64,000 bases of DNA from positions 6,055 to 70,054 of the forward strand of contig DIZC01000104.1 in assembly GCA_002429315.1 (NCBI GenBank), given 5' to 3'. The notes beneath the pieces were generated by a model that was given only the letters and a program-made list of their open reading frames with translations, searched no databases and was not told the origin of the DNA. Position 1 is the first letter of the stretch, and every line of letters begins with the position of its first letter. Source of the DNA: Alphaproteobacteria bacterium UBA6038 (GTDB lineage: Bacteria > Pseudomonadota > Alphaproteobacteria > Micropepsales > Micropepsaceae). Made by a program: the position numbers and the translations under genes. This document shows positions 25,108 to 39,273 of this stretch, piece by piece.

Positions 25108-25607
25108 TCGCCGGACGAACTGTACGGCGCATCGGGCGCGGTATAGGTCCCGCTTTTTCCGCCGGATTTCGACAACAGCCGAATGCCCTCGATAACAGCG
25201 CCGCGATCGATGGCCTTCACCATGTCGTACACCGTGAGGGCCGCTATCGTCACCGCCACGAGCGCCTCCATCTCGACGCCTGTCTGTGCCGTTGTGCGCG
25301 CGGTGGCGAGAATGCGCAGCGCAGAACGATCATCCTGCAGTTCGAATTCGATATTGGCTTTGGTCAGGGGAATGGGATGACAGAGCGGGATCAGTTCCGA
25401 TGTCTTCTTGGCGGCCATGATGCCGGCGAGCCGCGCCACCCCGAGCACATCGCCTTTCGGCGCATCGGATGAGAGGGCCACGTTATACGCGTCCGGTGAG
25501 AGCACGATGACGGCCGTGGCCTGTGCTTCACGCACCGTGATGTTCTTTTCAGAGACATCCACCATTCGGGCAGCGCCTTGCTCGTCCAAATGCGAGAGCT
25601 TAGTCAT
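25104..25607 (-). CDS. moaC: Cyclic pyranopterin monophosphate synthase
   Basis: [35 protein letters not shown]. Confidence 0.97.
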
Positions 25608-26404
25608 TTCCCCATCTTAGCACCGATCAGGTTGCGCGTCGCGGCTGCGACATCGGCCTGCCGCATGAAGGTTTCCCCGATCAGGAACGTCGTGACGCCC
25701 GCTCCAGCCAGAAGCTCGAGATCCGCGCGTGAGGCAAGGCCGCTTTCGGCGACCGCAAGAACATCGCCCGGAATTCGCGGCGCAAGCCTCAACGTCACGT
25801 CAAGATCGGTCTCGAATGTCCTCAGATCGCGATTGTTGATTCCGATCATCCCGGCGCCCAGCATCAGCGCACGATCGAGTTCCCGTTCGTCGTGAACTTC
25901 GACCAATGCATCCATCCCGTATTGGCCAGCCGCCGCCAACAACTCGCGTGCAAGGCCGTCGTCGACCATCGCCAGAATGATGAGGATGCAATCGGCGGCA
26001 TGGGCGCGGGCTTCTGCCACCTGGTACACATCGAGCAGAAAATCCTTTCGAAGCACCGGCAGCCCAACGGCAGCATGGACGAGCGGGACGTAGTCCAGAC
26101 AACCCTGAAAGGATGGCGCGTCGGTCAACACGGACAGGCACGTGGCGCCTCCGCTCTCGTAGGCTTGCGCCAAGGCTACCGGATCGAAGTCTGGACGAAT
26201 GATACCCTTCGACGGACTAGCCTTCTTGATCTCTGCGATCAGCGCGAACTCGCCGCTCGATTTCTTTTCCAGTAACCGCCCCCGAAAGCCCCGCGGCGGG
26301 GTTGTTTCTGCGGTTCGCGCTTCCAGATCGCGCAACGGCGCACGTGCCTTTGCGGCCACCACTTCCTCACGTTTGTAGGCGGCGATCTTGTTAAGAATGC
26401 TCAT
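25604..26404 (-). CDS. trpC: Indole-3-glycerol phosphate synthase
   Basis: [33 protein letters not shown]. Confidence 0.97.
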
Positions 26405-27425
26405 GTGCTTCTCGCGAGAACGCGACGAGCCTGCTCAGCACGGCGAGCGCGCCACTGTTTTCGATTGCGACCCTCGCTAAGACCGCGCCCGCTCGAAGGT
26501 CCGGAGCTTTGTCGGCGATAACGAGAGCCGCCGCGGCATTCAACACCACGATATCGCGATATGCGCCTCGATCTTTGCCCTCCAGCATGGAGATCAGCCG
26601 TTCCGCATTGTATCTTGCGTCATCGCCCTTCAGCGCATCGAGCGTGCTGCGCGGTGCACCGGCCTCTTCGGGATCCACGGTGCGTCGCTGGATTTCACCG
26701 TTCTCCAGGATTGTTGTGTGGGTAACCCCGGTCGTGGTCATCTCGTCCATACCGTCGCTGCCGTGCACGACCCACGCTTTCTTAGTACCAAGCTCGCCGA
26801 GCACCCGCGCGATCGGCTCTAGCCATTCCTCCGTATATACCCCCAGCAACTGGCGCCGCACGCCTGCCGGATTGCAGAGGGGGCCGAGCAGATTGAAAAT
26901 GGTCCGGACGCCCAGCCGTTGGCGTACCGGCGCCACGTTCTTCATCGCCGGATGGTAGTGTGGCGCGAAGAGGAAGCAGAGCCCCACTTCGCGCAGGCAG
27001 GCGCTCGCCGCTTCGGGCGAGAGCGTCACGTTTGCGCCCAACGTTTCCAGAATGTCCGCCGCCCCAGTGCGCGACGACATGTTGCGGTTGCCGTGCTTGG
27101 CCACCGGCACGCCGCAGGCGGCGACAACGAACGAGACCGCCGTCGAGATGTTCAGTGTGCCATGCCCGTCACCACCCGTGCCGCAGAGATCGATCGCGCC
27201 GGGCGGCGCGTCTATGGTCACCATGTTTGCCCGCATCGCGCGGGCCGCACCGGCGATTTCGGCAACCGTGGGCCCGCGCTGTGCCTGCGCGAGGAGGAAA
27301 TCGGCCAGATCGCCGTCCGCCACACTGCCTTTCATGATCGCCGCGAAGGCTTCCGAGGACTGCTCGGCGCTCAGGGACTCGCCGCGTCGAACCGGATCGA
27401 GGAAAAGCCGGAAATCGCTGCTCAT
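26391..27425 (-). CDS. trpD: Anthranilate phosphoribosyltransferase
   Basis: [34 protein letters not shown]. Confidence 0.97.
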
Positions 27426-28012
27426 GCCGGGACGCGGGCGAAGCTTTCCACGATGTTCAGAAAGTTCTGCAGCAGTGCATGTCCATTCTCGGACGCAATG
27501 CTCTCGGGATGGAACTGGACTCCGTGAACCGGATGCCGCCTGTGCATCGCTCCCATGATCACGCCGTCCTCGGTTGTCGCTGTGACCTCCAGTGCCTGGG
27601 GCACTGTCTCAGGCGCGATGGTCAGCGAATGATAGCGCGTGGCCTCGAAATCGTTGTTCAGGCCGCGAAACACGCCTTTGCCGGTGTGATGGATGCGGCT
27701 GAGCTTGCCATGCATCGGCTGCGGCGCCCGGACGACACGTGCGCCGTAAGCCTGTCCAATGGCCTGATGGCCCAGGCACACGCCAAGGATCGGCACGTGG
27801 CCATCGGCCTCTTCGACCAGGCTGACGCAGATTCCGGCCTCATTCGGCGTGCACGGACCGGGTGAGAGCACGATACCGTCCGGTTGCATAGCCAATGCCT
27901 GTGGCACCGAAATGTCATCGTTGCGCTTGACGACAACCTCTGCCCCCAACTCTCCCAGATAATGGAAGAGATTGAAGGTAAAGCTGTCGTAATTGTCGAT
28001 GAGTAGCAGCAT
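27422..28012 (-). CDS. trpG: Anthranilate synthase component II (glutamine amidotransferase)
   Basis: IDNYDSFTFNL, LSPGPCTP, GVCLGHQ, QFHPES. Confidence 0.96.
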   Translation of the reverse strand: MLLLIDNYDSFTFNLFHYLGELGAEVVVKRNDDISVPQALAMQPDGIVLSPGPCTPNEAGICVSLVEEADGHVPILGVCLGHQAIGQAYGARVVRAPQPMHGKLSRIHHTGKGVFRGLNNDFEATRYHSLTIAPETVPQALEVTATTEDGVIMGAMHRRHPVHGVQFHPESIASENGHALLQNFLNIVESFARVPA

Positions 28013-28108
28013 GTATCTTGGAATTCCGCTTATGGTACCCCATTTTGAGCGATGTCCGTTCCAGCGGCAACTGATCATGGCGCCGGCAGTTGGCCGGTCT
28101 GCACTCGG

Positions 28109-29650
28109 CTAAACCACAATTTCGATTAGAGTGGGACTGCAGCTTGCGAAACCGCGCGCCAAGTCTCGGGCGAAGTCCTCCAGGGTCGCAGCCTTCGTCG
28201 CCGACACGCCCATGCCGCTGGCGAGGGCCACCCAGTCGATGTCCGGTCGGCCGATCTCCAGCATGTCGAGGGCCTTCGGTCCGGGATTCTCGCCGGCGCT
28301 CACCAGCTCGCCCTTCAGGATGGCATAGGCGCGGTTCGCGAAGATCACCGTTGTGATCCGCAGGTTTTCGCGCGCGGCCGTCCACAAGGCCTGCAGCGTG
28401 TACATGCCACTGCCGTCCGCTTCGAGGCACAGCACCGGCCGTTCCGGGCACGCCACCGCCGCCCCAACGGCGAGCGGCATGCCGATTCCGATGGAGCCGC
28501 CGGTGTTCACCAGCCAGTCGTGCGGCGGCGCGCCGGCGGTCGCGGCCATCATACCTCGGCCGGAAGTGATGGATTCGTCGATGACGATGGCGCTCTCCGG
28601 CAGCAGCGCGCCCACCACCGCGGCAAGTCCGTTGAGCGTGATCTCGCCGGTCGGCAGTTGCGGGCGTGCCTGCGGCTGAAGCGCAGGCGTCGCATCGCCC
28701 GCGTGCAGGCGTTCGGCCAGCGCAGCGAGCGCGCCGGCGCCGTCTTCCTGCGGCGCGGATAAGGTAAACACCTCCGTCTTCTCCGCCGTCAGCACGCTCG
28801 GCTTGCGCGGATGCCCGAAGAACGCGACCGGCGGCGATGCGTTCAACAGAATCAGCGCGTCATATCCGGAAAGCTGCTCGATGGCCTGGTCGGTGACATA
28901 GGCGATGCGTTCCATTGGCGGCCGGCCGGCGCCGCGCTCGATCCGGGTAAAGGCGAAGGGCGCGAGCAGCTTCGCCCCGGTTTTCGCGGCGATCTGTCCC
29001 GCAATGATAAGCGGACCTCCGACGGTGAGCCCCGTGCCGAGCACCAGGCCCACGTGGCCGCGGCGCGTCATTAACCCTGCGGCGTGGGCGATCCGCGCCT
29101 CATCCGGCAGCGGTGCCGCCGGAATTGGCGGCACATCGGCGATCGCGCCGCCGTCGGACCACGCACTATCGGCGGGGAGGATGAGGGTGGCGATGCCCCC
29201 CGGCGCGGCCCGCGCCGCCGCAATGGCTTCGGCGCAATCCCGCCCCACCTCTGCCGCGGACTCCGCGCTCCGCAGCCAGGCCGAATGGGGCCGCGCCAGT
29301 GTCGCGATATCGGAGGCGAGCGGCGTCTCGTAGTGCCGATGGAAGCGGGCGTGGTCGCCGACGATATTGATTAACGGGACGCGCGCCCGGCATGCGTTGT
29401 GCAGGTTCGCCAGCGCATTCGTAAGGCCTGGCCCGAGATGAAGCAGCGTGCAGGCGGGTTTTCCGGTCATCCGGGCATAGCCGTCGGCTGCGCCGGAAGC
29501 CACGCCCTCGAACAGACACGGAATGCCGCGCATGGCCGGGACGCGGTCGAGCGCGGCCACGAAGTGAATTTCCGAGGTGCCGGGATTCATGAAGCACACG
29601 GTCACGCCGCCTCTGGTGAGCGTGCCGATCAGGCTTTCCGCGCCGTTCAA
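28109..29650 (-). CDS. ThDP-dependent enzyme, acetolactate synthase large subunit-like family
   Basis: TTG start after GGAGG; MNGAESL...NPGTSEIH, catalytic FEG, ThDP motif ADGSGMYT...FANRAY. Confidence 0.88.
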   Translation of the reverse strand: MNGAESLIGTLTRGGVTVCFMNPGTSEIHFVAALDRVPAMRGIPCLFEGVASGAADGYARMTGKPACTLLHLGPGLTNALANLHNACRARVPLINIVGDHARFHRHYETPLASDIATLARPHSAWLRSAESAAEVGRDCAEAIAAARAAPGGIATLILPADSAWSDGGAIADVPPIPAAPLPDEARIAHAAGLMTRRGHVGLVLGTGLTVGGPLIIAGQIAAKTGAKLLAPFAFTRIERGAGRPPMERIAYVTDQAIEQLSGYDALILLNASPPVAFFGHPRKPSVLTAEKTEVFTLSAPQEDGAGALAALAERLHAGDATPALQPQARPQLPTGEITLNGLAAVVGALLPESAIVIDESITSGRGMMAATAGAPPHDWLVNTGGSIGIGMPLAVGAAVACPERPVLCLEADGSGMYTLQALWTAARENLRITTVIFANRAYAILKGELVSAGENPGPKALDMLEIGRPDIDWVALASGMGVSATKAATLEDFARDLARGFASCSPTLIEIVV

Positions 29651-29719: not shown

Positions 29720-31051
29720 ATGCGCGACGAAACCCTTTCCATCCATGCCGGCTACGAGGCCGATCCGGTCACCAAAGCGGTGGCGGTGCCGATCTACCAG
29801 ACTGTGGCCTATGAGTTCGACAGCGCCGATCACGGCGCGGCGCTGTTCAACCTCGAAACGCCGGGGAACATCTACACGCGCCTGTCCAATCCCACCACTG
29901 CGGTGCTGGAAAAGCGCATCGCGGCGCTGGAAGGGGGCGTGGAGGCCCTGTGCGTCGGCTCGGGCATGGCGGCGATTCACTATGCCATCGTGAACATCGC
30001 CGAAGCGGGCCACAACATCGTCTCGACTCCGCAGCTCTACGGCGCGACCTGGACCTTGTTTGAGCACTTCCTGCGCAAGCAGGGAATCGATGTGCGCTTC
30101 GCGGCGAGCGACAGTATCGCGGACATCCAGGCGCTGATCGATGAGAACACCCGCGCGGTCTACTGCGAGAGCATCGGCAATCCAGGCGGCAACATCGCCG
30201 ATATCGAGGCGCTGGCGGATTGCGCGCACAAGAACGGCGTGCCGCTGATCGTCGACAACACCATCGCCACGCCCATCCTGCTGAAGCCGATCCGTTTCGG
30301 CGCCGACATCGTGGTGCATTCGCTAACCAAGTTCGTCGGCGGTCACGGCACCACGATGGGCGGGGCCGTCGTCGATTCGGGAAATTTCCCGTGGGAGCGG
30401 CACGCGCAGCGCTTTTCCATGTTGACGCAGCCGGAACCTGCCTATCACGGGGTGGTCTACACCCAGCAATATGGCCGCGCCGCCTACGCAGCGCGCTGCC
30501 GCACCGTTTGTCAGCGCAACACCGGCTCAGTGCTCGCGCCGCTCAGCGCCTTCCTCCTGCTGCAGGGTGCGGAGACGCTGGCACTGCGCGTCGAGCGGCA
30601 TCTCGAGAACACGGCCAAGGTTGTCGCGTTTCTCGATAATCATCCGCAGGTCGCGTGGTGCGATTCCATCGGGCGGAAGGGCACGCCAGGGCACGCACTC
30701 GCAAAGAAATATCTTGGAGGGCAAGGCGGACCGTTTCTCACCTTTGGCGTCAAGGGCGGCTTCGAGGAAGGCAAACGGTTCTACGATGCGCTGAAGCTGT
30801 TCAAGCGGCTGGTGAACATCGGCGATGCAAAGTCGCTCGCCTGCCATCCTGCATCGACCACGCACCGCCAGCTCACGCCTGAGGAACTGGAGCGGACCGG
30901 CGTGAAGCCGGAGATGATCCGGCTCTGCATCGGCATCGAGCACATCGACGATATCATCGAAGATCTCGACCAGGCGCTCGCGGCGACGGGGGACGCGTCG
31001 CAACCAATGGCACGAGCGCCGCAGCTGCGGCTCGCGGCATCGCGGGGGTGA
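29720..31051 (+). CDS. O-acylhomoserine aminocarboxypropyltransferase (MetY/MetZ-like PLP enzyme)
   Basis: AVPIYQT, IYTRLSNPT, VDNTIATP, HSLTKFVGGHG (PLP lysine), NIGDAKSLACHPASTTH. Confidence 0.92.
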   Translation: MRDETLSIHAGYEADPVTKAVAVPIYQTVAYEFDSADHGAALFNLETPGNIYTRLSNPTTAVLEKRIAALEGGVEALCVGSGMAAIHYAIVNIAEAGHNIVSTPQLYGATWTLFEHFLRKQGIDVRFAASDSIADIQALIDENTRAVYCESIGNPGGNIADIEALADCAHKNGVPLIVDNTIATPILLKPIRFGADIVVHSLTKFVGGHGTTMGGAVVDSGNFPWERHAQRFSMLTQPEPAYHGVVYTQQYGRAAYAARCRTVCQRNTGSVLAPLSAFLLLQGAETLALRVERHLENTAKVVAFLDNHPQVAWCDSIGRKGTPGHALAKKYLGGQGGPFLTFGVKGGFEEGKRFYDALKLFKRLVNIGDAKSLACHPASTTHRQLTPEELERTGVKPEMIRLCIGIEHIDDIIEDLDQALAATGDASQPMARAPQLRLAASRG

Positions 31052-32073
31052 GCCGCATGGACACCGGCGTGCACAATTTGCTGGTGCGGCCCCGCGGCGG
31101 GTGGCTGAACGGCCATGCGCCCGATGCGCTGCACATCGGGCTGCTCAACAACATGCCGGATGCGGCACTGGAAAGCACCGAGCGGCAGTTCTTTCGCCTG
31201 CTGGGCGCCGCCGCCTCCGACATTTCCATCCGGTGGCACCTGTTCTCGCTGCGAAGCATCGCCCGGAGCGACACCGGGAGTATTCATCTGATTCATCAGA
31301 ACTATGGGACCCCGAGGGACCTCTACAACACCCCGCTGAACGCCTTGATCGTCACCGGCACCGAGCCCTTGCAGCAGGACCTGCGGCAGGAGACCTACTG
31401 GCCTGAGCTGGCGACGGTATTCGATTGGATCGAGCGCGAAGGTCCGCCGGCGATCTTCTCCTGCCTCGCCGCCCATGCGGCCGTGATGCACTTCGACGGC
31501 ATCGAGCGGCGGCGGCTGCCACAGAAGCGCTTCGGCCTTTTCGATCATGTGGTCGCGGCGGAGCATCTCCTTACCGCATCGCTAACCGCTCCGTTCCGAA
31601 TCGCCCATTCGCGCTGGAACGAAGTGCCGGCAGATGCGCTGAACGACGCCGGGTACGAAATCCTCACCTACGCCCCGGAAGCCGGTGCCGATCTTTTCAC
31701 TAAACGCAAGCGGAATGCGCTCCTGTTCCTGCAGGGCCACCCGGAGTACGACTCCGACACGCTCGCCCGCGAGTACCGTCGCGACGTGCGGCGGTATCTG
31801 GCCGGCGCGCGCGACAGCTATCCCAATCTTCCGCTACACTATTTCGGCCGGCAGGAAGCCGACGCGCTGCGACGCTTCCGCGATCGCGCATTCGCCGGGC
31901 GGGACGAGCGGCTGATGGACCAGTTCCCGGCCATTACTTCCCGACGGGTGTCCGCAACCGCTCCGATGTCGCCGGTGTTCGGTTCCTTGCTGCGCGAGAT
32001 CAACGCCCGCCGAGATAGCCGCTACGGCATGGCGCCGCGCCGGGCTGTGACGACCCAGGCGCACGCGCCATGA
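31048..32073 (+). CDS. Homoserine O-acyltransferase MetA-like, non-canonical
   Basis: LLNNMPD, IVTGTEP, YWPEL, FSCLAAHAA (Cys nucleophile), HSRWN, QGHPEYD (His-Glu), EYRRD; GTGA overlap with upstream stop. Confidence 0.87.
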   Translation: MSRMDTGVHNLLVRPRGGWLNGHAPDALHIGLLNNMPDAALESTERQFFRLLGAAASDISIRWHLFSLRSIARSDTGSIHLIHQNYGTPRDLYNTPLNALIVTGTEPLQQDLRQETYWPELATVFDWIEREGPPAIFSCLAAHAAVMHFDGIERRRLPQKRFGLFDHVVAAEHLLTASLTAPFRIAHSRWNEVPADALNDAGYEILTYAPEAGADLFTKRKRNALLFLQGHPEYDSDTLAREYRRDVRRYLAGARDSYPNLPLHYFGRQEADALRRFRDRAFAGRDERLMDQFPAITSRRVSATAPMSPVFGSLLREINARRDSRYGMAPRRAVTTQAHAP

Positions 32074-33239
32074 GCGCCATCGCTCTGCCGCGCCCGCCAG
32101 ACGATCCGCAGCAGGTTGAGCCGATCGACCTTTTGCTCGGCATTTGGCGGCACGTGCTGCAGACAGCGGATGTGGCGCCCGACAGCAATTTCTTCGACCT
32201 CGGCGGCGACTCGCTGCTGGCGCTCACGCTGTTTCTGGAGATCGAACGCGCGACCGGCCGTCATCTGCCGATCACCGCGATTTACGATGCGCAGACGGTG
32301 CAAGAGCAGGCAGCGCTCCTGGCAGGGCAGCCAGCGCCGGAATTTTCCCCCCTCGTGCTGCTCAAGGGCGGCGATGGCAGTGCGCCACTGTTCATCTTTC
32401 ACGGCGTCGGCGGGGCCGTCGTGGAGTTCGCCGCCCTCGGCAAACTCATCGACATTCCCGGTGAAGTTTTTGCCGTGCAGGCGCAGGGCGTGGACGGAAC
32501 GCTCCCTCCACTGGAATCGGTCGAAGAAATGGCGGCCCTTTATTTCGACAACATCCGTCAGAGACAGCCGGCCGGCCCCTATTGGCTGTGCGGCTATTCT
32601 TTCGGCGGACTGCTGGCCGTCGAAGTGGCGCGGCGGCTGAAGCAGGCTGGCGAAGAGATCGCGCTCCTCTTCCTGATCGACTCGTACGCGCACCCCGCCA
32701 CCTGGCCGCGCAAATCCCTGCTGAAGGTGCGCGCGCGGCGCGCTGGAAATCTAGTGCTGTCGCGATTGGAGCGGCCGCCGCGGGAGAACTTTGCCGTTCT
32801 GCTTGCCGCACTGGGGATGTTCGCGACGAACACCGCCGATAATGATGACGATTCGCAACTGCCGCCCGAGATGCGCAAGCGGAGTTGGCTTCTCAAGATG
32901 AAGCCCAATCTCCCGCTGCCACTCCTCGAAACCCGGCTGGCGACCGAGAGGGCCCTCTATCGCTATCGCCCCAGCTATTATTCGGGCGAGGCGCTGTTCC
33001 TGAAGGCGCAGCGTCCCGACCCTCATTTCCCCGACGATCCCAAGCACGTATGGCGCAAGCTCATTGGACAGTTGACGATGCAAGTGTGTCCGGGCTCGCA
33101 CCTCACCATCGTAAGCGAGCACGCCGCCGATGTGGCGGCACGGATCAATGCCTCGGTTCGCGAAGCGCGCCGCGCGCCCACACTGACGGTGGCGCCGAAG
33201 AGGGGTTTTCGCTGGTCAATGTCTGCGAGGCCGGTGTGA
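32070..33239 (+). CDS. Stand-alone carrier protein (PP-binding) + thioesterase didomain
   Basis: NFFDLGGDSLLA phosphopantetheine site; FHGVGG, GYSFGG (GxSxG), LIDS, PGSHL. Confidence 0.9.
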   Translation: MSAIALPRPPDDPQQVEPIDLLLGIWRHVLQTADVAPDSNFFDLGGDSLLALTLFLEIERATGRHLPITAIYDAQTVQEQAALLAGQPAPEFSPLVLLKGGDGSAPLFIFHGVGGAVVEFAALGKLIDIPGEVFAVQAQGVDGTLPPLESVEEMAALYFDNIRQRQPAGPYWLCGYSFGGLLAVEVARRLKQAGEEIALLFLIDSYAHPATWPRKSLLKVRARRAGNLVLSRLERPPRENFAVLLAALGMFATNTADNDDDSQLPPEMRKRSWLLKMKPNLPLPLLETRLATERALYRYRPSYYSGEALFLKAQRPDPHFPDDPKHVWRKLIGQLTMQVCPGSHLTIVSEHAADVAARINASVREARRAPTLTVAPKRGFRWSMSARPV

Positions 33240-34819
33240 TGCGGCACGAGCCTATGCAGCGGCAAGACGAGCTTCGCAGGGTCGAGGAGATCGTCTCGGT
33301 TCAGGCGATGAAGACGCCTGAACGGATTGCGCTGGTCCAAGATGGCCGCCATTGCACCTATGGCGAATTGCAGCGTGCCATCGCCTTTGGGGCAAAATGG
33401 CTGGCGCAACAGGGCGCGCGGCCGTGCGATCGCGTGCTGCTGGTGTGCGAGAACTCGTTTGCGGCAGTGGCGGTTTATTTCGCCTGCGCGACCGTCGGGG
33501 CATGGCCGGTGATCGTGAACGCCCGGCTCTCGGCGCGCGAGATCGACGACATCGCCGCGCACTGCGAAAGCCGGCTGATGCTGTTCACCACGTCCGGATC
33601 GTCGCGCGCCAAGGCCCACGCGGAGCGGCGCGGCGCAACGATGCTTCCGGACCTTGCCGGCGTGGGCGCCGTTGCCATCGGTCCGTTGAACGGGAGCGTG
33701 GAACAGGAAGCGGAAGCGGACAATAGCGACGGCCAATCGGATGTTGCCGCGCTCATCTACACCACGGGCACCACCGGCCGCCCTAAAGGCGTGATGCTGA
33801 CGCACACAAATCTGCTGTTCGTCGCGCGTGCCACCGCGGAAGCCCGCGGGCTGACGAGTGCGGACCGTGTCTATGCGACTTTGCCCATCTCGCATGCCCT
33901 GGGACTGACCGGCGTCTTGCTGGGCTCGCTGCTCTCCGGCGCGGAAGTGCATCTGACGTCGCGCTTCGACCCGGCGGCGGTCCTCGCCGAGCTCGGCAAC
34001 GGCGGCATCAGCGTGATGATCGGCACGCCCTCTATGTATGCGCTGCTGGTGGAATACGCCAAGCGCAAACAACTCGTTCCCATTGCCGCGCCATCGCTGC
34101 GGCTCATGTCCTCCGCCGGCGCGCCGCTCGATGCAACGACAAAGGCCGACGCCGAAGCGGCATTCGGGCAGACGCTCCACAACGGATATGGCATTTCGGA
34201 ATGCGGCCCCAGTATTTCTCTCACCGCGCTGGATGCGCCGCGCGGCGATTGCTCCGTGGGACGCCTGCTGGCCGGCGTGGAAGCGAGGCTGGTCGTCGGC
34301 GCGAACGACGAGGCTGGCACGAAAATGGGCGAGCTTTTGATCCGCAGCCCCGGCGTGATGAAGGGCTACTATCGCGCGCCGGAGGAAACGCGGGCGGCGA
34401 TCGACGATACGGGTTGGTTCCGCACCGGGGATCTCGCACGGATCGATAATGATCACCTGTTCATCGTCGGCCGCGCGAAAGAGATGATCATCCGGTTCGG
34501 ATTCAACGTTTATCCGGCCGAGGTGGAAGCGGTGCTGAACGCGCATCCACAAGTCGTGCGGTCGGTTGTGGCCGGCCATGTGCGCAACGGCACCGAGGAT
34601 ATCCTGGCCTTCGTGCAGATGGCAGGCGGAACGACAACCGCAGCCGCCGATCTGGCCGATTACTCGGCATCTCGGCTCGCGCCTTACAAGCGGCCCACGG
34701 AGATCGTCGTTGTTTGCGAAATGCCAATGAATGCGAACGGAAAGGTGTTGAAAGCAGAGCTCGTGGCTAAATGGATGGAATCGAATGCTTCGGCTCCTCC
34801 GGCGAGTGCGGCAGCATGA
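33239..34819 (+). CDS. Class I adenylate-forming enzyme (acyl-CoA/acyl-carrier ligase)
   Basis: YTTGTTGRPKG, GYGISE, FRTGDL, GRAKEMIIRFGFNVYPAEVE, NANGKVLK; TGATG overlap. Confidence 0.92.
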   Translation: MRHEPMQRQDELRRVEEIVSVQAMKTPERIALVQDGRHCTYGELQRAIAFGAKWLAQQGARPCDRVLLVCENSFAAVAVYFACATVGAWPVIVNARLSAREIDDIAAHCESRLMLFTTSGSSRAKAHAERRGATMLPDLAGVGAVAIGPLNGSVEQEAEADNSDGQSDVAALIYTTGTTGRPKGVMLTHTNLLFVARATAEARGLTSADRVYATLPISHALGLTGVLLGSLLSGAEVHLTSRFDPAAVLAELGNGGISVMIGTPSMYALLVEYAKRKQLVPIAAPSLRLMSSAGAPLDATTKADAEAAFGQTLHNGYGISECGPSISLTALDAPRGDCSVGRLLAGVEARLVVGANDEAGTKMGELLIRSPGVMKGYYRAPEETRAAIDDTGWFRTGDLARIDNDHLFIVGRAKEMIIRFGFNVYPAEVEAVLNAHPQVVRSVVAGHVRNGTEDILAFVQMAGGTTTAAADLADYSASRLAPYKRPTEIVVVCEMPMNANGKVLKAELVAKWMESNASAPPASAAA

Positions 34820-35205
34820 GCACGGCCGAAGGCGACTGGGTCTCCTGGAGCATCGACGGGCGGGCCGGTGCGAAGCTATGCCTCGGCCCCGTATTCCTCG
34901 GCGAGATCAGCTACCCACACGATTTGGGCCTGGGCGCGCGCTGGAGAGCGTGGTTGAACCATGAGCATCTCGGATTCTTCCGCAATGCCGAAGAAGCGAA
35001 AAGCCGGATCGAACGCGAAGTGCTGGAGCGGCTTCGTCTCATGGAGCCTGCGTGGACGAGATTTCAGGCGCGCGCCCAATCGAACGCAGCTACGCTGGAG
35101 TTCGCACCTGTCGCCGTGGTGAGGGCCGGCTCGTTTCCGCAACGCGAATCGAAAGCCGGTCCCGTGATGGCGAATTCCGCGCAGCGAAAAGGCCGCGCGG
35201 CCTAA
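34816..35205 (+). CDS. Hypothetical protein, 129 aa, coupled to the ligase gene
   Basis: ATG 34816 overlaps ligase stop (ATGA); host-like codons; no recognised domain. Confidence 0.65.
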   Translation: MSTAEGDWVSWSIDGRAGAKLCLGPVFLGEISYPHDLGLGARWRAWLNHEHLGFFRNAEEAKSRIEREVLERLRLMEPAWTRFQARAQSNAATLEFAPVAVVRAGSFPQRESKAGPVMANSAQRKGRAA

Positions 35206-35412
35206 GCGCACGATCATGCGCCTGTGAAAGCCGTGTGCCAGACCGATCGAGCGGCCCCTAACCGGCGCCTTTCCGGTGCCCGTGCATCCCAAAACGGAAC
35301 GATTCTCTTTTCTTTGAAACACTGTCGGCTGGCGCCAAATGTGCATCGCGGCGGCCAAATGCCCAGCCAACCGCATATCGCGTCGGAAAGAAATGGCCGA
35401 AGCTCCGGCAGG

Positions 35413-36681
35413 ATGCTGCATAGCGCGCTCCGGGCATTCGTATTGGTCTCGGGAGTTCCTCTGGGCTTCTACGGCTCCTCCGCCCTGGCGGTCTCTGTCG
35501 ACTGGCAACAAAGCTACAACAACTCAGGACGTACGGGCCAAAATCGGCATGAAACCATCTTGTCAGCTGCGAACGCGGCCGGCTTGCAACTGGAATGGGC
35601 GCGCTCGTTTGCCGGTGAGGTCCGGGCATTCGTGCTGAACGATCATTATGTCATCGCACGCGTTCCGAGTGACGATGGCCAGAACCTTGACCTCTGGTAT
35701 ATCAACTATGCAACCGGAGAGATGGCCTGGCGAGTCGATACCGGACCCGACGTTGCAGGAGCAAACGGAACGCTTGCGACCGGCGACAAGCTGATTTTCA
35801 GCGAGTGCGGCCTTGTCGATGCGGTGGGCTACAAATACAGCGGTATCTGCGCCTATCGAAAGAGGGATGGGCGCAAGGCCTGGCAGTTTTCCAACCCTTG
35901 CAACTGTACCCCCGAGGCGAACGTCGTCACCCCGCTCGTTTATCTCAGCAATGGCGTTGTAATCTTCGGATATTTCAACGGCGGCACCGGCGGCAAGGAA
36001 TACGTGCTGGCGGCGCGCGCCGCTACCGGCCAAATCCTTGGCGCGTATCAGACGGGAGGGATCGGCTCCCTTGGCAACGCCCCGATAACCGGCGGGACAG
36101 AAAAAGTGTTTTTCGATTGCGGCGGCAATGTGTGTGCGGTGGATCACAGAAACGGGAACTTCCTCTGGAAGTCGAACGTGGGCGCGCCGATCGGCGCCTT
36201 CAGCGCCGACCGAAATGGCCGACTCTACGCAACCCTCTGCAATGGCCCCGCGGGGCTGATCGCCCTGGACGCCGTGACCGGCGCGCCGCTTTGGTCGTAT
36301 GGGGGGTCCGGATGCAGTCAAGCGCCTGCAGCGGTCGCCGGCAATCGCGTTTACTTCGCGGCGGCGGACGGCAATGTGCGTGCTCTGGACGTGGGAACGG
36401 GAGCGGAAATTTGGTCCGCAGCTCCGGGGACCGCGTCATCGGCTTCGCTGGCCAATGGCGTGATGTACGTTGAGGGCCTATCCGGCGCGCCGGCGGCGAG
36501 CGCTTACGATGCGACGACGGGAGCGCTCCTCTGGAGCAGCCCATCCCACTCGGCGAGCCATCACCCCCCGCCCGTGATCGTCGATGGAACCGTGTACGTG
36601 GCGAACGGCGCGTGCGGGAATCTGTGCGCCTATCACCTGCCAGTCGCGGGCGCCCATCGCCCGTCGTTCTCGCGACACTGA
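35413..36681 (+). CDS. Secreted PQQ-binding-like (BamB-type) beta-propeller protein
   Basis: Signal-like N-terminus, WQQSYNNSGRTGQN start of mature region, repeated A-D-xxTG-xxxW blades; start uncertain (35359 or 35413). Confidence 0.8.
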   Translation: MLHSALRAFVLVSGVPLGFYGSSALAVSVDWQQSYNNSGRTGQNRHETILSAANAAGLQLEWARSFAGEVRAFVLNDHYVIARVPSDDGQNLDLWYINYATGEMAWRVDTGPDVAGANGTLATGDKLIFSECGLVDAVGYKYSGICAYRKRDGRKAWQFSNPCNCTPEANVVTPLVYLSNGVVIFGYFNGGTGGKEYVLAARAATGQILGAYQTGGIGSLGNAPITGGTEKVFFDCGGNVCAVDHRNGNFLWKSNVGAPIGAFSADRNGRLYATLCNGPAGLIALDAVTGAPLWSYGGSGCSQAPAAVAGNRVYFAAADGNVRALDVGTGAEIWSAAPGTASSASLANGVMYVEGLSGAPAASAYDATTGALLWSSPSHSASHHPPPVIVDGTVYVANGACGNLCAYHLPVAGAHRPSFSRH

Positions 36682-36810
36682 CCAAATTGGAACAAGCCCC
36701 ATGCGCTGGAGGCCTGTCAAATCGGCCGGCCCGTTCCTGGCGCGGCGATGCGACCAGGCCTCGTGGGGCTGCCTATGTTATCATTGCGGTCGAGTTGTGG
36801 AGAAATCGAG

Positions 36811-37701
36811 ATGCTTGAGATAGTCATCGACCAGCGCCGGCGCGATCTCGGCGGATTCGAGGTCGGGCGCGTGCTGCCGCATCCCCAGCGCCGGATGGTT
36901 GGCCCGTTCATCTTCTTCGATCACATGGGCCCTGTGACGTTTCCCCCCGGAATCTCGCGCAGCGTAGATGTGCGGCCGCATCCCCATATCGGGCTTTCGA
37001 CAGTCACCTATCTGTTCGAAGGCGAAATCATGCATCGCGACAGCGTCGGCTCCGAGCAGCCGATCCGGCCGGCCGAAGTGAATTGGATGACGGCAGGCCG
37101 CGGCATCACGCATTCCGAACGGTTCGAGAAAGCACGCGCTGAGGGCGGCGCCATGCACGGCATTCAGGCTTGGGCTGCGCTTCCGGAAGGCAGCGAAGAG
37201 ATCGAGCCAAGCTTTATGCACCACGGCCAGAGCGATCTGCCGGTCATGGAGGAGGGCGGGGTGAAAGCGCGTATTCTTGCCGGCCAGGCGTTCGGGTCCG
37301 AGGCGCGCGTGAAAACGCACTCGCCGATGTTTTATGCTCATCTGGACCTAGCGTCCGGCGCCAGCGTTGCGTTGCCGGACTATCCTGAGCGCGCGGCGTA
37401 TGTGGTTTCAGGCATAATCGAAGCGGCGGGCCAAAACTTTCATCCGGGACAGCTGCTGTTGTTCAAGCCGGGAGATTCGGCCGTTGTCACCGCTCACGAG
37501 CAGAGCACGTTGATGGCCCTGGGCGGCGAGCCGGTCGGCCCACGCTTCATCGAATGGAATTTCGTCTCCTCGTCCAGAGAACGCATCGAGCAGGCCAAGG
37601 CGGATTGGCGTGCCGGGCGGATGAAACTGCCCGATCTCGATCATGGCGAGTTCATTCCCCTGCCGCCCGATCCGCCGCCACCGCCCAATCCAATGTCTTA
37701 G
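36811..37701 (+). CDS. Pirin family protein
   Basis: GPFIFFDHMGP, PHPHIGLSTVTY, WMTAGRGITHSE metal ligands. Confidence 0.93.
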   Translation: MLEIVIDQRRRDLGGFEVGRVLPHPQRRMVGPFIFFDHMGPVTFPPGISRSVDVRPHPHIGLSTVTYLFEGEIMHRDSVGSEQPIRPAEVNWMTAGRGITHSERFEKARAEGGAMHGIQAWAALPEGSEEIEPSFMHHGQSDLPVMEEGGVKARILAGQAFGSEARVKTHSPMFYAHLDLASGASVALPDYPERAAYVVSGIIEAAGQNFHPGQLLLFKPGDSAVVTAHEQSTLMALGGEPVGPRFIEWNFVSSSRERIEQAKADWRAGRMKLPDLDHGEFIPLPPDPPPPPNPMS

Positions 37702-37731: not shown

Positions 37732-39273
37732 TTAGACGCCGACGCTGCTTGCGATTCCCCGGGCGTTTTCGCCCTCGGCAAACTGTGCGGCCTCGTCGGC
37801 GGCCGCGAACAGCGCCTTCGCCTTGTTCACGCTCTCCTGATATTCCGCTTCAGGCACGCTGTCGGCCACGATGCCGCCTCCCGCCTGCACGTACATCGTT
37901 CCGTCTTTGATAAGCGCAGTGCGCAAAACGATGCAGGTGTCCATCGAACCGTCGGCGGCAAAATAACCGACGGCACCTGCGTACACGGCGCCGCGCTTTT
38001 CCTTCTCCAACTCATCGATGATCTGCATGGCGCGGATTTTCGGCGCGCCGGACAGCGTGCCGGCGGGCAAACCTGCCGCCAATGCGTCGACCGCGTCCAG
38101 CCCGTCGCGGATTTCGCCTTCGACGTTGGACACCAGGTGCATCACGTGGCTGTAGCGCTCGACGAAGAAGCTGTCGGTCACGTGAACGCTGCCCACTTTC
38201 GCGACCCGGCCGACGTCGTTGCGGCCCAGATCGAGCAGCATCAGGTGCTCCGCCTTCTCCTTGGGATCGTTCGCCAGTTCCTGCGCCAGTTCTGCATCCT
38301 CTGCGGCAGATTTTCCGCGCGGACGGGTGCCCGCGATCGGCCGAATTGTGACGATGCGATCGCGGAGTCGCACCAAAATCTCCGGACTCGATCCCACGAT
38401 GGAGAAGCTGGGGAAGGCGAGGTGATACAGGAATGGAGACGGATTGAGCCGGCGCAAGGCCCGGTAGAGGGAGAACGCGGGCAACGTGAACGGCCGCCGA
38501 AATCGTTGACTTGGCACCACCTGGAAAACGTCACCGGCACGGATGTACGCCTTCGCTCGCTCCACCATAGCAAGGTAATCTGTCCGACTGGTGTTCGATC
38601 GCACGGCATCGCCTGCAACCGCGCCAGCCGTCGTCACGGCGGTGCGCGGAACGACGCGGCTGAGATCGTCGGTCACGTCATTCAGCCGCTCGCAGGCTCG
38701 CGCATAGGCGGCCCGCGCGTCCAAGCCAGCTTGCGGCCACACTGGCGTCACTACGGTGATCTCGTCGCGCACATTGTCGAAGACGGCGGTAACGGTTGGG
38801 CGGATCAGAACAGCATCCGGAATGCCGAGCGCGTCGGGAGGTGGCTCGCCCAGCCGCTCGATCAACCGCACCATGTCGTAACCGAGATAGCCGAACAGGC
38901 CCACCGCCATTGGCGGCAGATGAGGCGGCAGCATCATGCGCGTGGCGTCTACCAGGGAACGCAGGGACTGCAGCGGCGGCTCTCCGGCAGGCCCGAACGA
39001 CTCCCCCGCGCTGCGCTCATTGCGGTTGATCTCGGCCTGACCGCCGCGGCAGCGCCAGATCAAATCTGGTTTCAGGCCGACGATGGAATAGCGCCCGCGG
39101 CTTTCGCCCCCTTGCACGCTCTCGAAGAGGAAAGCATTGTCCCGCCCTTCGCACAGTTTCAGAAAAACCGAAACCGGCGTCTCGAGATCGCCTATCGATC
39201 GCCGATAAATCGGCTGAGGCCGGTTGGAATCGTAGAGCCGGGCGAAGGTCGCAAAGTCCGGCTCAATGGGCAT
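37732..39273 (-). CDS. trpE: Anthranilate synthase component I
   Basis: DLETPV, FQVVPSQRF, LNPSPF, SSPEILV, EHLMLLDLGRND, GTLSGAPKIRAM, QAGGGIVADS. Confidence 0.97.
   Translation of the reverse strand: MPIEPDFATFARLYDSNRPQPIYRRSIGDLETPVSVFLKLCEGRDNAFLFESVQGGESRGRYSIVGLKPDLIWRCRGGQAEINRNERSAGESFGPAGEPPLQSLRSLVDATRMMLPPHLPPMAVGLFGYLGYDMVRLIERLGEPPPDALGIPDAVLIRPTVTAVFDNVRDEITVVTPVWPQAGLDARAAYARACERLNDVTDDLSRVVPRTAVTTAGAVAGDAVRSNTSRTDYLAMVERAKAYIRAGDVFQVVPSQRFRRPFTLPAFSLYRALRRLNPSPFLYHLAFPSFSIVGSSPEILVRLRDRIVTIRPIAGTRPRGKSAAEDAELAQELANDPKEKAEHLMLLDLGRNDVGRVAKVGSVHVTDSFFVERYSHVMHLVSNVEGEIRDGLDAVDALAAGLPAGTLSGAPKIRAMQIIDELEKEKRGAVYAGAVGYFAADGSMDTCIVLRTALIKDGTMYVQAGGGIVADSVPEAEYQESVNKAKALFAAADEAAQFAEGENARGIASSVGV

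Follow-up and report, generated by a model that had tools for sequence, protein, structure and literature searches.

A candidate acyl-CoA-dependent homoserine O-acyltransferase of a divergent MetA clade, co-translated with a MetY homologue and carrier-protein genes in Alphaproteobacteria bacterium UBA6038

Which acyl donor is used by a member of the MetA family that carries neither of the sequence signatures by which acetyl- and succinyl-dependent homoserine O-acyltransferases are told apart? This question is raised by a gene at positions 31048-32073 (plus strand) in a 64,000-nt stretch of contig DIZC01000104.1 from Alphaproteobacteria bacterium UBA6038; the whole of this stretch is referred to here as the window. 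In the original prediction, the encoded protein was taken to be an active acyltransferase with a different donor, plausibly the acyl group of the neighbouring carrier protein. Our analysis leads to another answer. At a probability of roughly 0.58, we read the protein as an acyl-CoA-dependent homoserine O-acyltransferase of a divergent clade, which would be a spare copy serving the cluster with which it is co-translated. A carrier-borne acyl donor is unlikely.

On translation, 31048-32073 proved to be a single open frame of 341 aa, the residues 27-273 of which match PF04204 (HTS/MetA) with 197 bits (E 4.6e-58). The sole and best-scoring NCBIfam model among its matches was NF003776 ("homoserine O-succinyltransferase MetA"; PRK05368.1-3), which aligned with residues 26-302 at 358.9 bits, the cut-off being 358. 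Both the canonical succinyl model TIGR01001 (133 bits, cut-off 495) and the acetyl model NF047918 (131 bits, cut-off 460) remained below cut-off. The true start is probably ATG 31057, giving a protein of 338 aa, rather than GTG 31048, because Met4 is nearly invariant in homologues, a 95%-identical match has 338 aa and GGGGGTGA precedes this ATG by about 8 nt. The GTG start overlaps the stop codon of the preceding metY-like gene (window 31048-31059), and the ATG start agrees with the starts of the homologues.

The protein was compared by HMMER alignment with the solved MetA chains from Escherichia coli (7CBE/6MTG), Bacillus cereus (2VDJ) and Thermotoga maritima (2H2W). The reference motifs on which the prediction had been built, LNLMPxK and TGAPxE or TGAPxG, were confirmed on these sequences: E. 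coli has LNLMPKK and TGAPLG, B. cereus LNLMPT-K and TGAPVE, and T. maritima LNLMPDK and TGAPVE. In the window protein, LNNMPDA (residues 33-39, positions 31144-31164, plus strand) stands where E. coli has LNLMPKK, and the loop TGTEPL (residues 103-108, 31354-31371, plus strand) stands in place of TGAPx[E/G]. There is no equivalent of E. coli Lys47, the lysine of LNLMPxK; the window motif reads NNMPDAA, and no conserved lysine occurs at this place across the clade. Since the stretch from the shared TG to YWP aligns without gaps, Leu108 is the counterpart of E. coli position 111, so that neither the glutamate of acetyl-dependent nor the glycine of succinyl-dependent enzymes is found there. The predicted lack of an acetyl or succinyl signature in TGTEPL and LNNMPDA, with the triad in FSC and GHPE preserved, was thus borne out by translation and alignment alike.

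Catalytic Cys139 lies in FSC (residues 137-139, 31456-31464, plus strand), and His231 and Glu233 lie in GHPEY (residues 230-234, 31735-31749, plus strand), which ends in Tyr234. Together with Glu242 and Arg245 (GHPEY to Arg245, 31735-31785, plus strand), these residues align with E. coli H235, E237, Y238, E246 and R249. Cys139, His231 and Glu233, the counterparts of the E. coli triad C142, H235 and E237, are invariant in an alignment of 26 sequences with 48-75% identity. So are G31, N34, N35, M36, D38, A40, T103, G104, E106 and P107, and the pattern of motifs can therefore not be due to chance. Also invariant are K160, S188, R189, Y234, E242 and R245, which align with E. coli K163, S192, R193, Y238, E246 and R249, the residues that we take to be the homoserine-binding set of the E. 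coli enzyme. This set reportedly goes back to work by Zubieta in 2008 and by Coe and Viola in 2007. It is a matter of speculation whether the invariant Glu106, two residues before position 111, could take the role of Glu111 of the acetyl class.

An AlphaFold2 (AF2) model of the protein reached a mean predicted local distance difference test (pLDDT) of 86.8. When this model was compared by Foldseek with 2H2W, 2VDJ, 2GHR, 6MTG and 7CBE, the E-values were around 1e-20 and the target-normalised TM-scores 0.77-0.80, so that the glutamine-amidotransferase-like fold of MetA is kept in the model. Past the end of the Pfam match at residue 273 there is a C-terminal extension of about 50 residues, and helices are confidently predicted at 268-283, 287-292 and 308-325; these C-terminal helices hold residues that are invariant in the clade. 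The protein is apparently a catalytically competent member of a distinct and widespread clade within PF04204. Judged by the triad, the presumed homoserine-binding residues and the modelled fold, the claim of an active acyltransferase is supported.

The unusual motifs are not peculiar to the window protein. TG[TA]EP, in a few cases TGVEP, was present in nearly all of the best 120 database matches, as was NNMPD where the match included the N-terminus. A pattern scan of a one-genome-per-species collection returned at least 599 matching stretches, and clade membership was confirmed for at least 573 of them. The hosts include Rhizomicrobium, Bradyrhizobium, Stellaceae, Acidobacteriota, Rokubacteria, Binataceae, Vulcanimicrobiota and Gammaproteobacteria. 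Arg46 is a further residue specific to this TGxEP/NNMPD clade. More divergent MetA-like genes with 36-41% identity were seen in three genomes of the same genus as UBA6038 (L099:3795-4793, L100:3604-4638 and L101:3924-4892, from G014, G029 and G027, respectively). They encode VNNMPDA together with TGTQSD or TGAPD loops and have no adjacent metY, and a simple pattern search for the xxC catalytic motif came up empty in L100 and L101. These genes may form a further sub-branch or be inactive.

A set of 79 loci served for neighbourhood counts, and a motif alignment covered 77 loci. Save for a few single-residue variants, both motifs are the same throughout the aligned loci. They are alike in loci with a didomain of peptidyl carrier protein and thioesterase (PCP-TE) plus a ligase, in loci with an operon holding two enzymes of the ANL superfamily (acyl-CoA synthetases, nonribosomal peptide synthetase (NRPS) adenylation domains and luciferases), in those with a thiamine pyrophosphate (TPP) enzyme only, and in bare loci. 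Position 111 of the clade varies among R, K, I, V, Q, L and N, and a correlation of this residue with cluster type was sought in the aligned loci and not found. In a quick maximum-likelihood tree of MetA, the topology of which is provisional, loci of the two-ANL type branch off at the base as a paraphyletic group, the PCP-TE type falls mostly into one derived clade (Shimodaira-Hasegawa-like approximate likelihood ratio test 91) with L049 and L053 placed elsewhere, and E. coli MetA lies outside the clade on a very long branch. Moreover, clade MetA is present in Bradyrhizobium japonicum in8p8, a Rokubacterium and Bauldia litoralis (G001, G002 and G004), in which a genome-wide search gave no PCP-TE match while the positive control was found.

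These results speak against the neighbouring carrier as the predicted donor. The motifs run through the whole clade and do not differ between loci with and without PCP-TE, apart from the few variants, the same type of MetA occurs in genomes in which no PCP-TE was found, and the window carrier is fused to a thioesterase of its own that appears intact. In the MetA tree, the PCP-TE type forms a derived sub-clade plus scattered cases. On the aligned sequences, the unusual motifs mark a whole branch of MetA and are not an adaptation to a neighbouring carrier. The broader claim of a different donor can be upheld as a possibility and no more firmly, in view of the absence of Lys47 from the clade and of the differences in Lys47 and the 109-111 loop, which we take to be the donor side of MetA.

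In the window, the MetA gene is preceded by a gene for a MetY-like γ-replacement enzyme dependent on pyridoxal phosphate (PLP) of the O-acetylhomoserine sulfhydrylase type (29720-31051, plus strand; PF01053, E 1.9e-125; TIGR01326, 603 against a cut-off of 495). It matches T. maritima MetY (7KB0) at 5e-142 and keeps Tyr58, Arg60, Lys210 and Arg270. It also keeps the arginine of TTHRQ, which presumably binds the α-carboxylate of the substrate. In MetY, Tyr58, Arg60 and Arg270 wall off succinyl and cysteine, with Arg270 discriminating against O-succinylhomoserine and keeping cysteine out (PMC8191291). Retention of this residue points to an acyl group and a nucleophile that are both small and, if anything, to an acetyl-type product of the acyltransferase.

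Downstream of MetA follow, all on the plus strand, a PCP-TE didomain (32070-33239; PF00550 and PF00975), an ANL-superfamily acyl ligase of the acyl-CoA-synthetase type (33239-34819; PF00501 and PF13193) and orf129 (34816-35205), which is coupled to the ligase and has no Pfam or NCBIfam match. The five genes from metY to orf129 are chained by the stop/start overlaps GTGA, ATGA, TGATG and ATGA; the stop codon of metY overlaps GTG 31048, and this first junction becomes a 5-nt gap instead of a GTGA overlap if MetA starts at ATG 31057. The carrier domain has the GGDSL motif with Ser48, and the thioesterase, with GYSFGG (Ser177), Asp204 and His344, has an apparently intact Ser-Asp-His triad as judged by motifs. 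Its closest solved relatives are the PCP-TE regions of EntF and AB3403. The ligase has an intact P-loop and A10 lysine, and the closest solved structures are those of feruloyl/fatty-acyl-CoA synthetase and the malonyl-CoA synthetase MatB. A TPP enzyme related to benzoylformate decarboxylase is divergently transcribed from the other side of metY (28109-29650, minus strand; NF005760, 709.7 against a cut-off of 363; 1e-37 with benzoylformate decarboxylase structures). Neither a condensation domain nor an NRPS adenylation domain was found in the window cluster, which does not lie within a polysaccharide locus. The sole match to phosphopantetheinyl transferases (PF01648) in the genome lies outside the window in a 186-codon open frame (G000:C57:87506-87784); we take it to be of the AcpS type, and it would then have to activate the PCP-TE as well. 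orf129 was seen to be conserved only in the closest four or five loci (55-62% identity).

Promoter and terminator scans of the window gave results no better than those with shuffled controls. The operon is followed at 35224-37701 by genes for a pyrroloquinoline quinone (PQQ)-like β-propeller and a pirin, and the propeller weakly matches that of the β-alanine-activating enzyme ACSF4 (PF13570, below cut-off). Both were rejected as members of the cluster, as its conservation in other loci does not extend to them. The block from 28.1 to 37.7 kb has trpC, trpD and trpG on one side and trpE on the other (25604-28078 and 37732-39273, all minus strand), and relatives keep a SurA-like gene beside trpE. 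Insertion of the cluster into a trp operon could not be shown, because trpG is likewise missing within 1.5 kb of trpE in 11 genomes of the same genus and the GC content is not distinct.

Across the clade, metY adjoins MetA in 74 of the 79 loci, and a TPP enzyme accompanies the pair in 25. A PCP-TE together with a ligase is present in 24 loci and in three gene orders, mostly with a TPP enzyme as well; the hosts are Rhizomicrobium-like bacteria, three uncultured proteobacteria, an Acetobacteraceae and a metagenome-assembled genome (MAG) of Vulcanimicrobiota. In the MAG of Candidatus Aquilonibacter (L049:2546-16195), the genes for PCP-TE, ligase, TPP enzyme, MetY and MetA are ordered differently; they are flanked by genes for a flavin monooxygenase that weakly matches Lys/Orn N-hydroxylases, an asparagine-synthase-like protein, an ATP-grasp enzyme and a class IV aminotransferase. 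About 30 loci, from Acidobacteriota, Rokubacteria, Binataceae and others, have the two-ANL operon, which encodes, in this order, a haem-oxygenase-like iron enzyme (PF14518), a free carrier protein (PF00550), an ANL enzyme of about 465 aa, a short-chain dehydrogenase/reductase, a second ANL enzyme of about 600 aa (NF006134), a PLP-dependent group-II decarboxylase, MetY and MetA (for example L030:1177-8939, L043:2370-10276 and L071:2950-12797, plus some 25 further loci). An amino acid:[carrier protein] ligase resembling seryl-tRNA synthetase (SerRS; NF005479) is encoded beside the pair in 14 loci, some of them from Bradyrhizobium (L084:10508-15693, L060:713-5393, L050, L047 and L073 are examples); these loci bring along an 88-aa carrier protein, a gene resembling those for acyl-CoA dehydrogenases (ACAD-like), a SnoaL-like gene, a family 2 glycosyltransferase and sometimes a PF00975 thioesterase. 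In the Stellaceae-type loci, five or six in number, the TPP enzyme and a class IV aminotransferase are the only partners, and roughly ten Bradyrhizobium loci lack any cluster partner. ANL enzymes occur near the pair in about 53 loci, and those of different cluster types are about 24% identical.

Elsewhere, the UBA6038 genome encodes a bona fide MetX, a canonical MetY, MetZ, two cystathionine-γ-synthase-like proteins and MetC. Because it has MetX and five other Cys/Met PLP paralogues, the MetY-MetA pair of the window is an extra copy. A close orthologue was present in only two of 24 genomes of the same genus, a patchy distribution. A MetW gene adjoining metX was looked for and not found. Of eleven genomes tested, including that of UBA6038, six have true MetX together with clade MetA, although one of these six, G050 (unpublished), rests on a single record; the argument does not depend on it. 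An S-adenosylmethionine (SAM) riboswitch was detected by Rfam neither upstream of metY in the window nor in eight related loci nor near the other methionine genes of this genome, and regulation therefore does not separate the methionine-gene copies.

In the mechanism that we propose, an acyl-CoA would acylate Cys139 by the ping-pong route of MetA, and the acyl group, predicted to be small and of the acetyl type, would then move to the γ-hydroxyl of free L-homoserine. The co-translated MetY-like enzyme would swap the acyloxy group for a small nucleophile, by default bisulfide, yielding homocysteine or a γ-substituted analogue. As a spare copy, the pair would in this way provide a C4 amino acid for use by the neighbouring TPP decarboxylase, ligase and PCP-TE. 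Related loci couple the pair with a PLP decarboxylase or with an aminotransferase and a TPP decarboxylase, which suggests that the product of MetY loses its α-carboxylate before or after meeting a carrier-bound acyl group. Thioesterases are the usual off-loading catalysts for carrier-bound acyl groups, and here the fused thioesterase, not MetA, would release such a group.

Several points weigh against this reading. Membership in NF003776 is borderline by sequence, even if the cut-off is reached. Donor recognition may really differ, because the entire clade lacks Lys47 and has a rebuilt 109-111 loop, and an unusual acyl-CoA could come from the adjacent ligase, which is similar to CoA ligases acting on small or dicarboxylic acids. 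In about 50 of the 79 loci (some 63%, in three architectures), clade MetA has a carrier-protein gene no more than 8 kb away, a higher share than would be expected of a plain methionine enzyme. One point in favour of the reading is that G046, G047 and G048 have no PF04204 gene other than clade MetA and no MetX match at or above the model cut-off, which suggests that clade MetA may sustain ordinary homocysteine synthesis there; yet these genomes are MAGs of unstated completeness, and the missing MetX could also reflect incomplete assembly. The source labels of clade members, those of the Bradyrhizobium and Rhizomicrobium homologues included, read "homoserine O-succinyltransferase", and they are automatic. 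Finally, no enzymology of any TGxEP-type member was found in the literature covered; Bastard 2017, which lay outside it, may have assayed one.

The pair might be a plain methionine-pathway isozyme, that is, a second direct-sulfhydrylation module for which the adjacency of PCP-TE and ligase has no meaning. The bare Bradyrhizobium loci, the three genomes with clade MetA as seemingly the sole homoserine acyltransferase and a partner that looks like a normal MetY all fit this explanation. We consider it rather unlikely, however, given that translational coupling continues into the PCP-TE and ligase genes, that three distinct architectures, from several phyla, link the pair to genes for carriers and adenylating enzymes, and that neither a SAM riboswitch upstream in the window or the eight other loci nor an even distribution within the genus was seen. 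It is improbable, too, that the product of the adjacent ANL ligase is a non-standard acyl-CoA, such as one of the malonyl type or of another small acid, and that the MetA clade prefers this donor. Such a donor would account for the rebuilt donor-side motifs and for the frequency of ANL enzymes near the pair, and the window ligase is closest to MatB, oxalate-CoA ligase and feruloyl-CoA synthetase. Yet the ANL partners change with the type of cluster while the MetA motifs do not, no ligase is found near the pair in Bradyrhizobium and Stellaceae loci, a costly acyl group would be lost as the leaving group of the MetY reaction, and Arg270 of MetY favours a small one.

Much the same evidence makes us regard it as quite unlikely that the neighbouring carrier donates the acyl group to MetA from its phosphopantetheine arm and that the lost Lys47 and TGAP loop reflect lost binding of the CoA nucleotide. 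An acyl-CoA and an acyl-carrier protein do offer the same thioester arm, the PCP-TE is co-translated with MetA, and three kinds of carrier occur near the clade. Against this, the motifs stay unchanged, single-residue variants aside, where no carrier is near and in genomes without PCP-TE, and the PCP has an intact thioesterase of its own. Nor is any one docking partner conserved, since architecturally the three types of carrier are unrelated. What MetA installs is only the leaving group discarded in the γ-replacement by MetY, and hence a custom carrier-borne acyl would be wasted. The acceptor rather than the donor could also be different, with a carrier-tethered homoserine or another hydroxy compound being acylated in place of free L-homoserine. 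The SerRS-like ligase and free carrier beside the pair in 14 loci would lend themselves to this, and both the biological role and the native amino acid of such ligases were called unknown in a 2022 review (PMC9437257). We nevertheless hold a tethered acceptor to be very improbable. The residues Y234, E242, R245, K160, S188 and R189, in our assumption the holders of the homoserine carboxylate and amine, are invariant, and MetY keeps the TTHRQ arginine with its presumed role; taken together, these residues suggest free amino acids as substrates.

We therefore keep to the reading of the window protein as an acyl-CoA-dependent homoserine O-acyltransferase. A farther-reaching proposal, which we think has little chance of being right, is that clade MetA is the acyl-transferring or homoserine-activating part of a widespread undescribed thiotemplate pathway, in which MetA, MetY and carriers build a small acyl or amine unit that derives from homoserine and possibly contains sulfur. 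The part of the carrier would fall to the PCP-TE in the window and, elsewhere, to free carriers loaded by ANL or SerRS-like ligases. If its strongest form were true, with MetA drawing the acyl from the phosphopantetheine arm, this would be the first carrier-dependent MetA. The clade matters in either case. The Glu/Gly-111 rule for acetyl versus succinyl specificity is widely used in annotation of the methionine pathway, and the TGxEP clade fits neither class, yet databases uniformly name its members succinyltransferases. Knowing the activity of a single cultured member would be enough to correct hundreds of annotations or to bear them out. Another use of the clade is as a handy marker for uncharacterised cassettes of carrier protein and MetA/MetY, some of which include SerRS-like amino acid:[carrier protein] ligases.

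With canonical MetA (7CBE/6MTG, 2VDJ and 2H2W), the window protein shares the Pfam family, the fold (target-normalised TM-score about 0.8), the triad and the residues of the acceptor side, and both are paired with a Cys/Met PLP enzyme. It differs in being only 24-28% identical, in having NNMPD[x]A without Lys47, in Arg46 and in about 50 extra C-terminal residues; with TGxEP in place of TGAPx[E/G], neither the Glu111 nor the Gly111 rule applies. The "succinyl" in the name of NF003776 is likewise automatic. A spare homoserine-activating enzyme and a MetY homologue inside a specialised cluster are also known from fusaric acid biosynthesis, with Fub5 and Fub7 (FUB7, 8ERB/8EQW), and FUB7 matches the window MetY at 8e-130. 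The fungal acyltransferase Fub5 belongs to the MetX rather than the MetA type, and FUB7 catalyses C-C bond formation, whereas the active site of the window MetY does not obviously depart from that of sulfhydrylases. Systems with SerRS-like amino acid:[carrier protein] ligases of the Bll0957/Bsr0959 type (NF005479), reportedly described by Mocibob in 2010, find their counterpart in the 14 related loci that join MetA/MetY to such a ligase, a free carrier and an ACAD-like gene. None of these genes is present in the window, where the carrier is a PCP-TE fusion and presumably ANL-loaded. That fusion has the architecture, the GGDSL serine and the Ser-Asp-His thioesterase of the terminal PCP-TE of NRPS (EntF, 3TEJ/2ROQ; AB3403, 4ZXH), but unlike these it stands alone.

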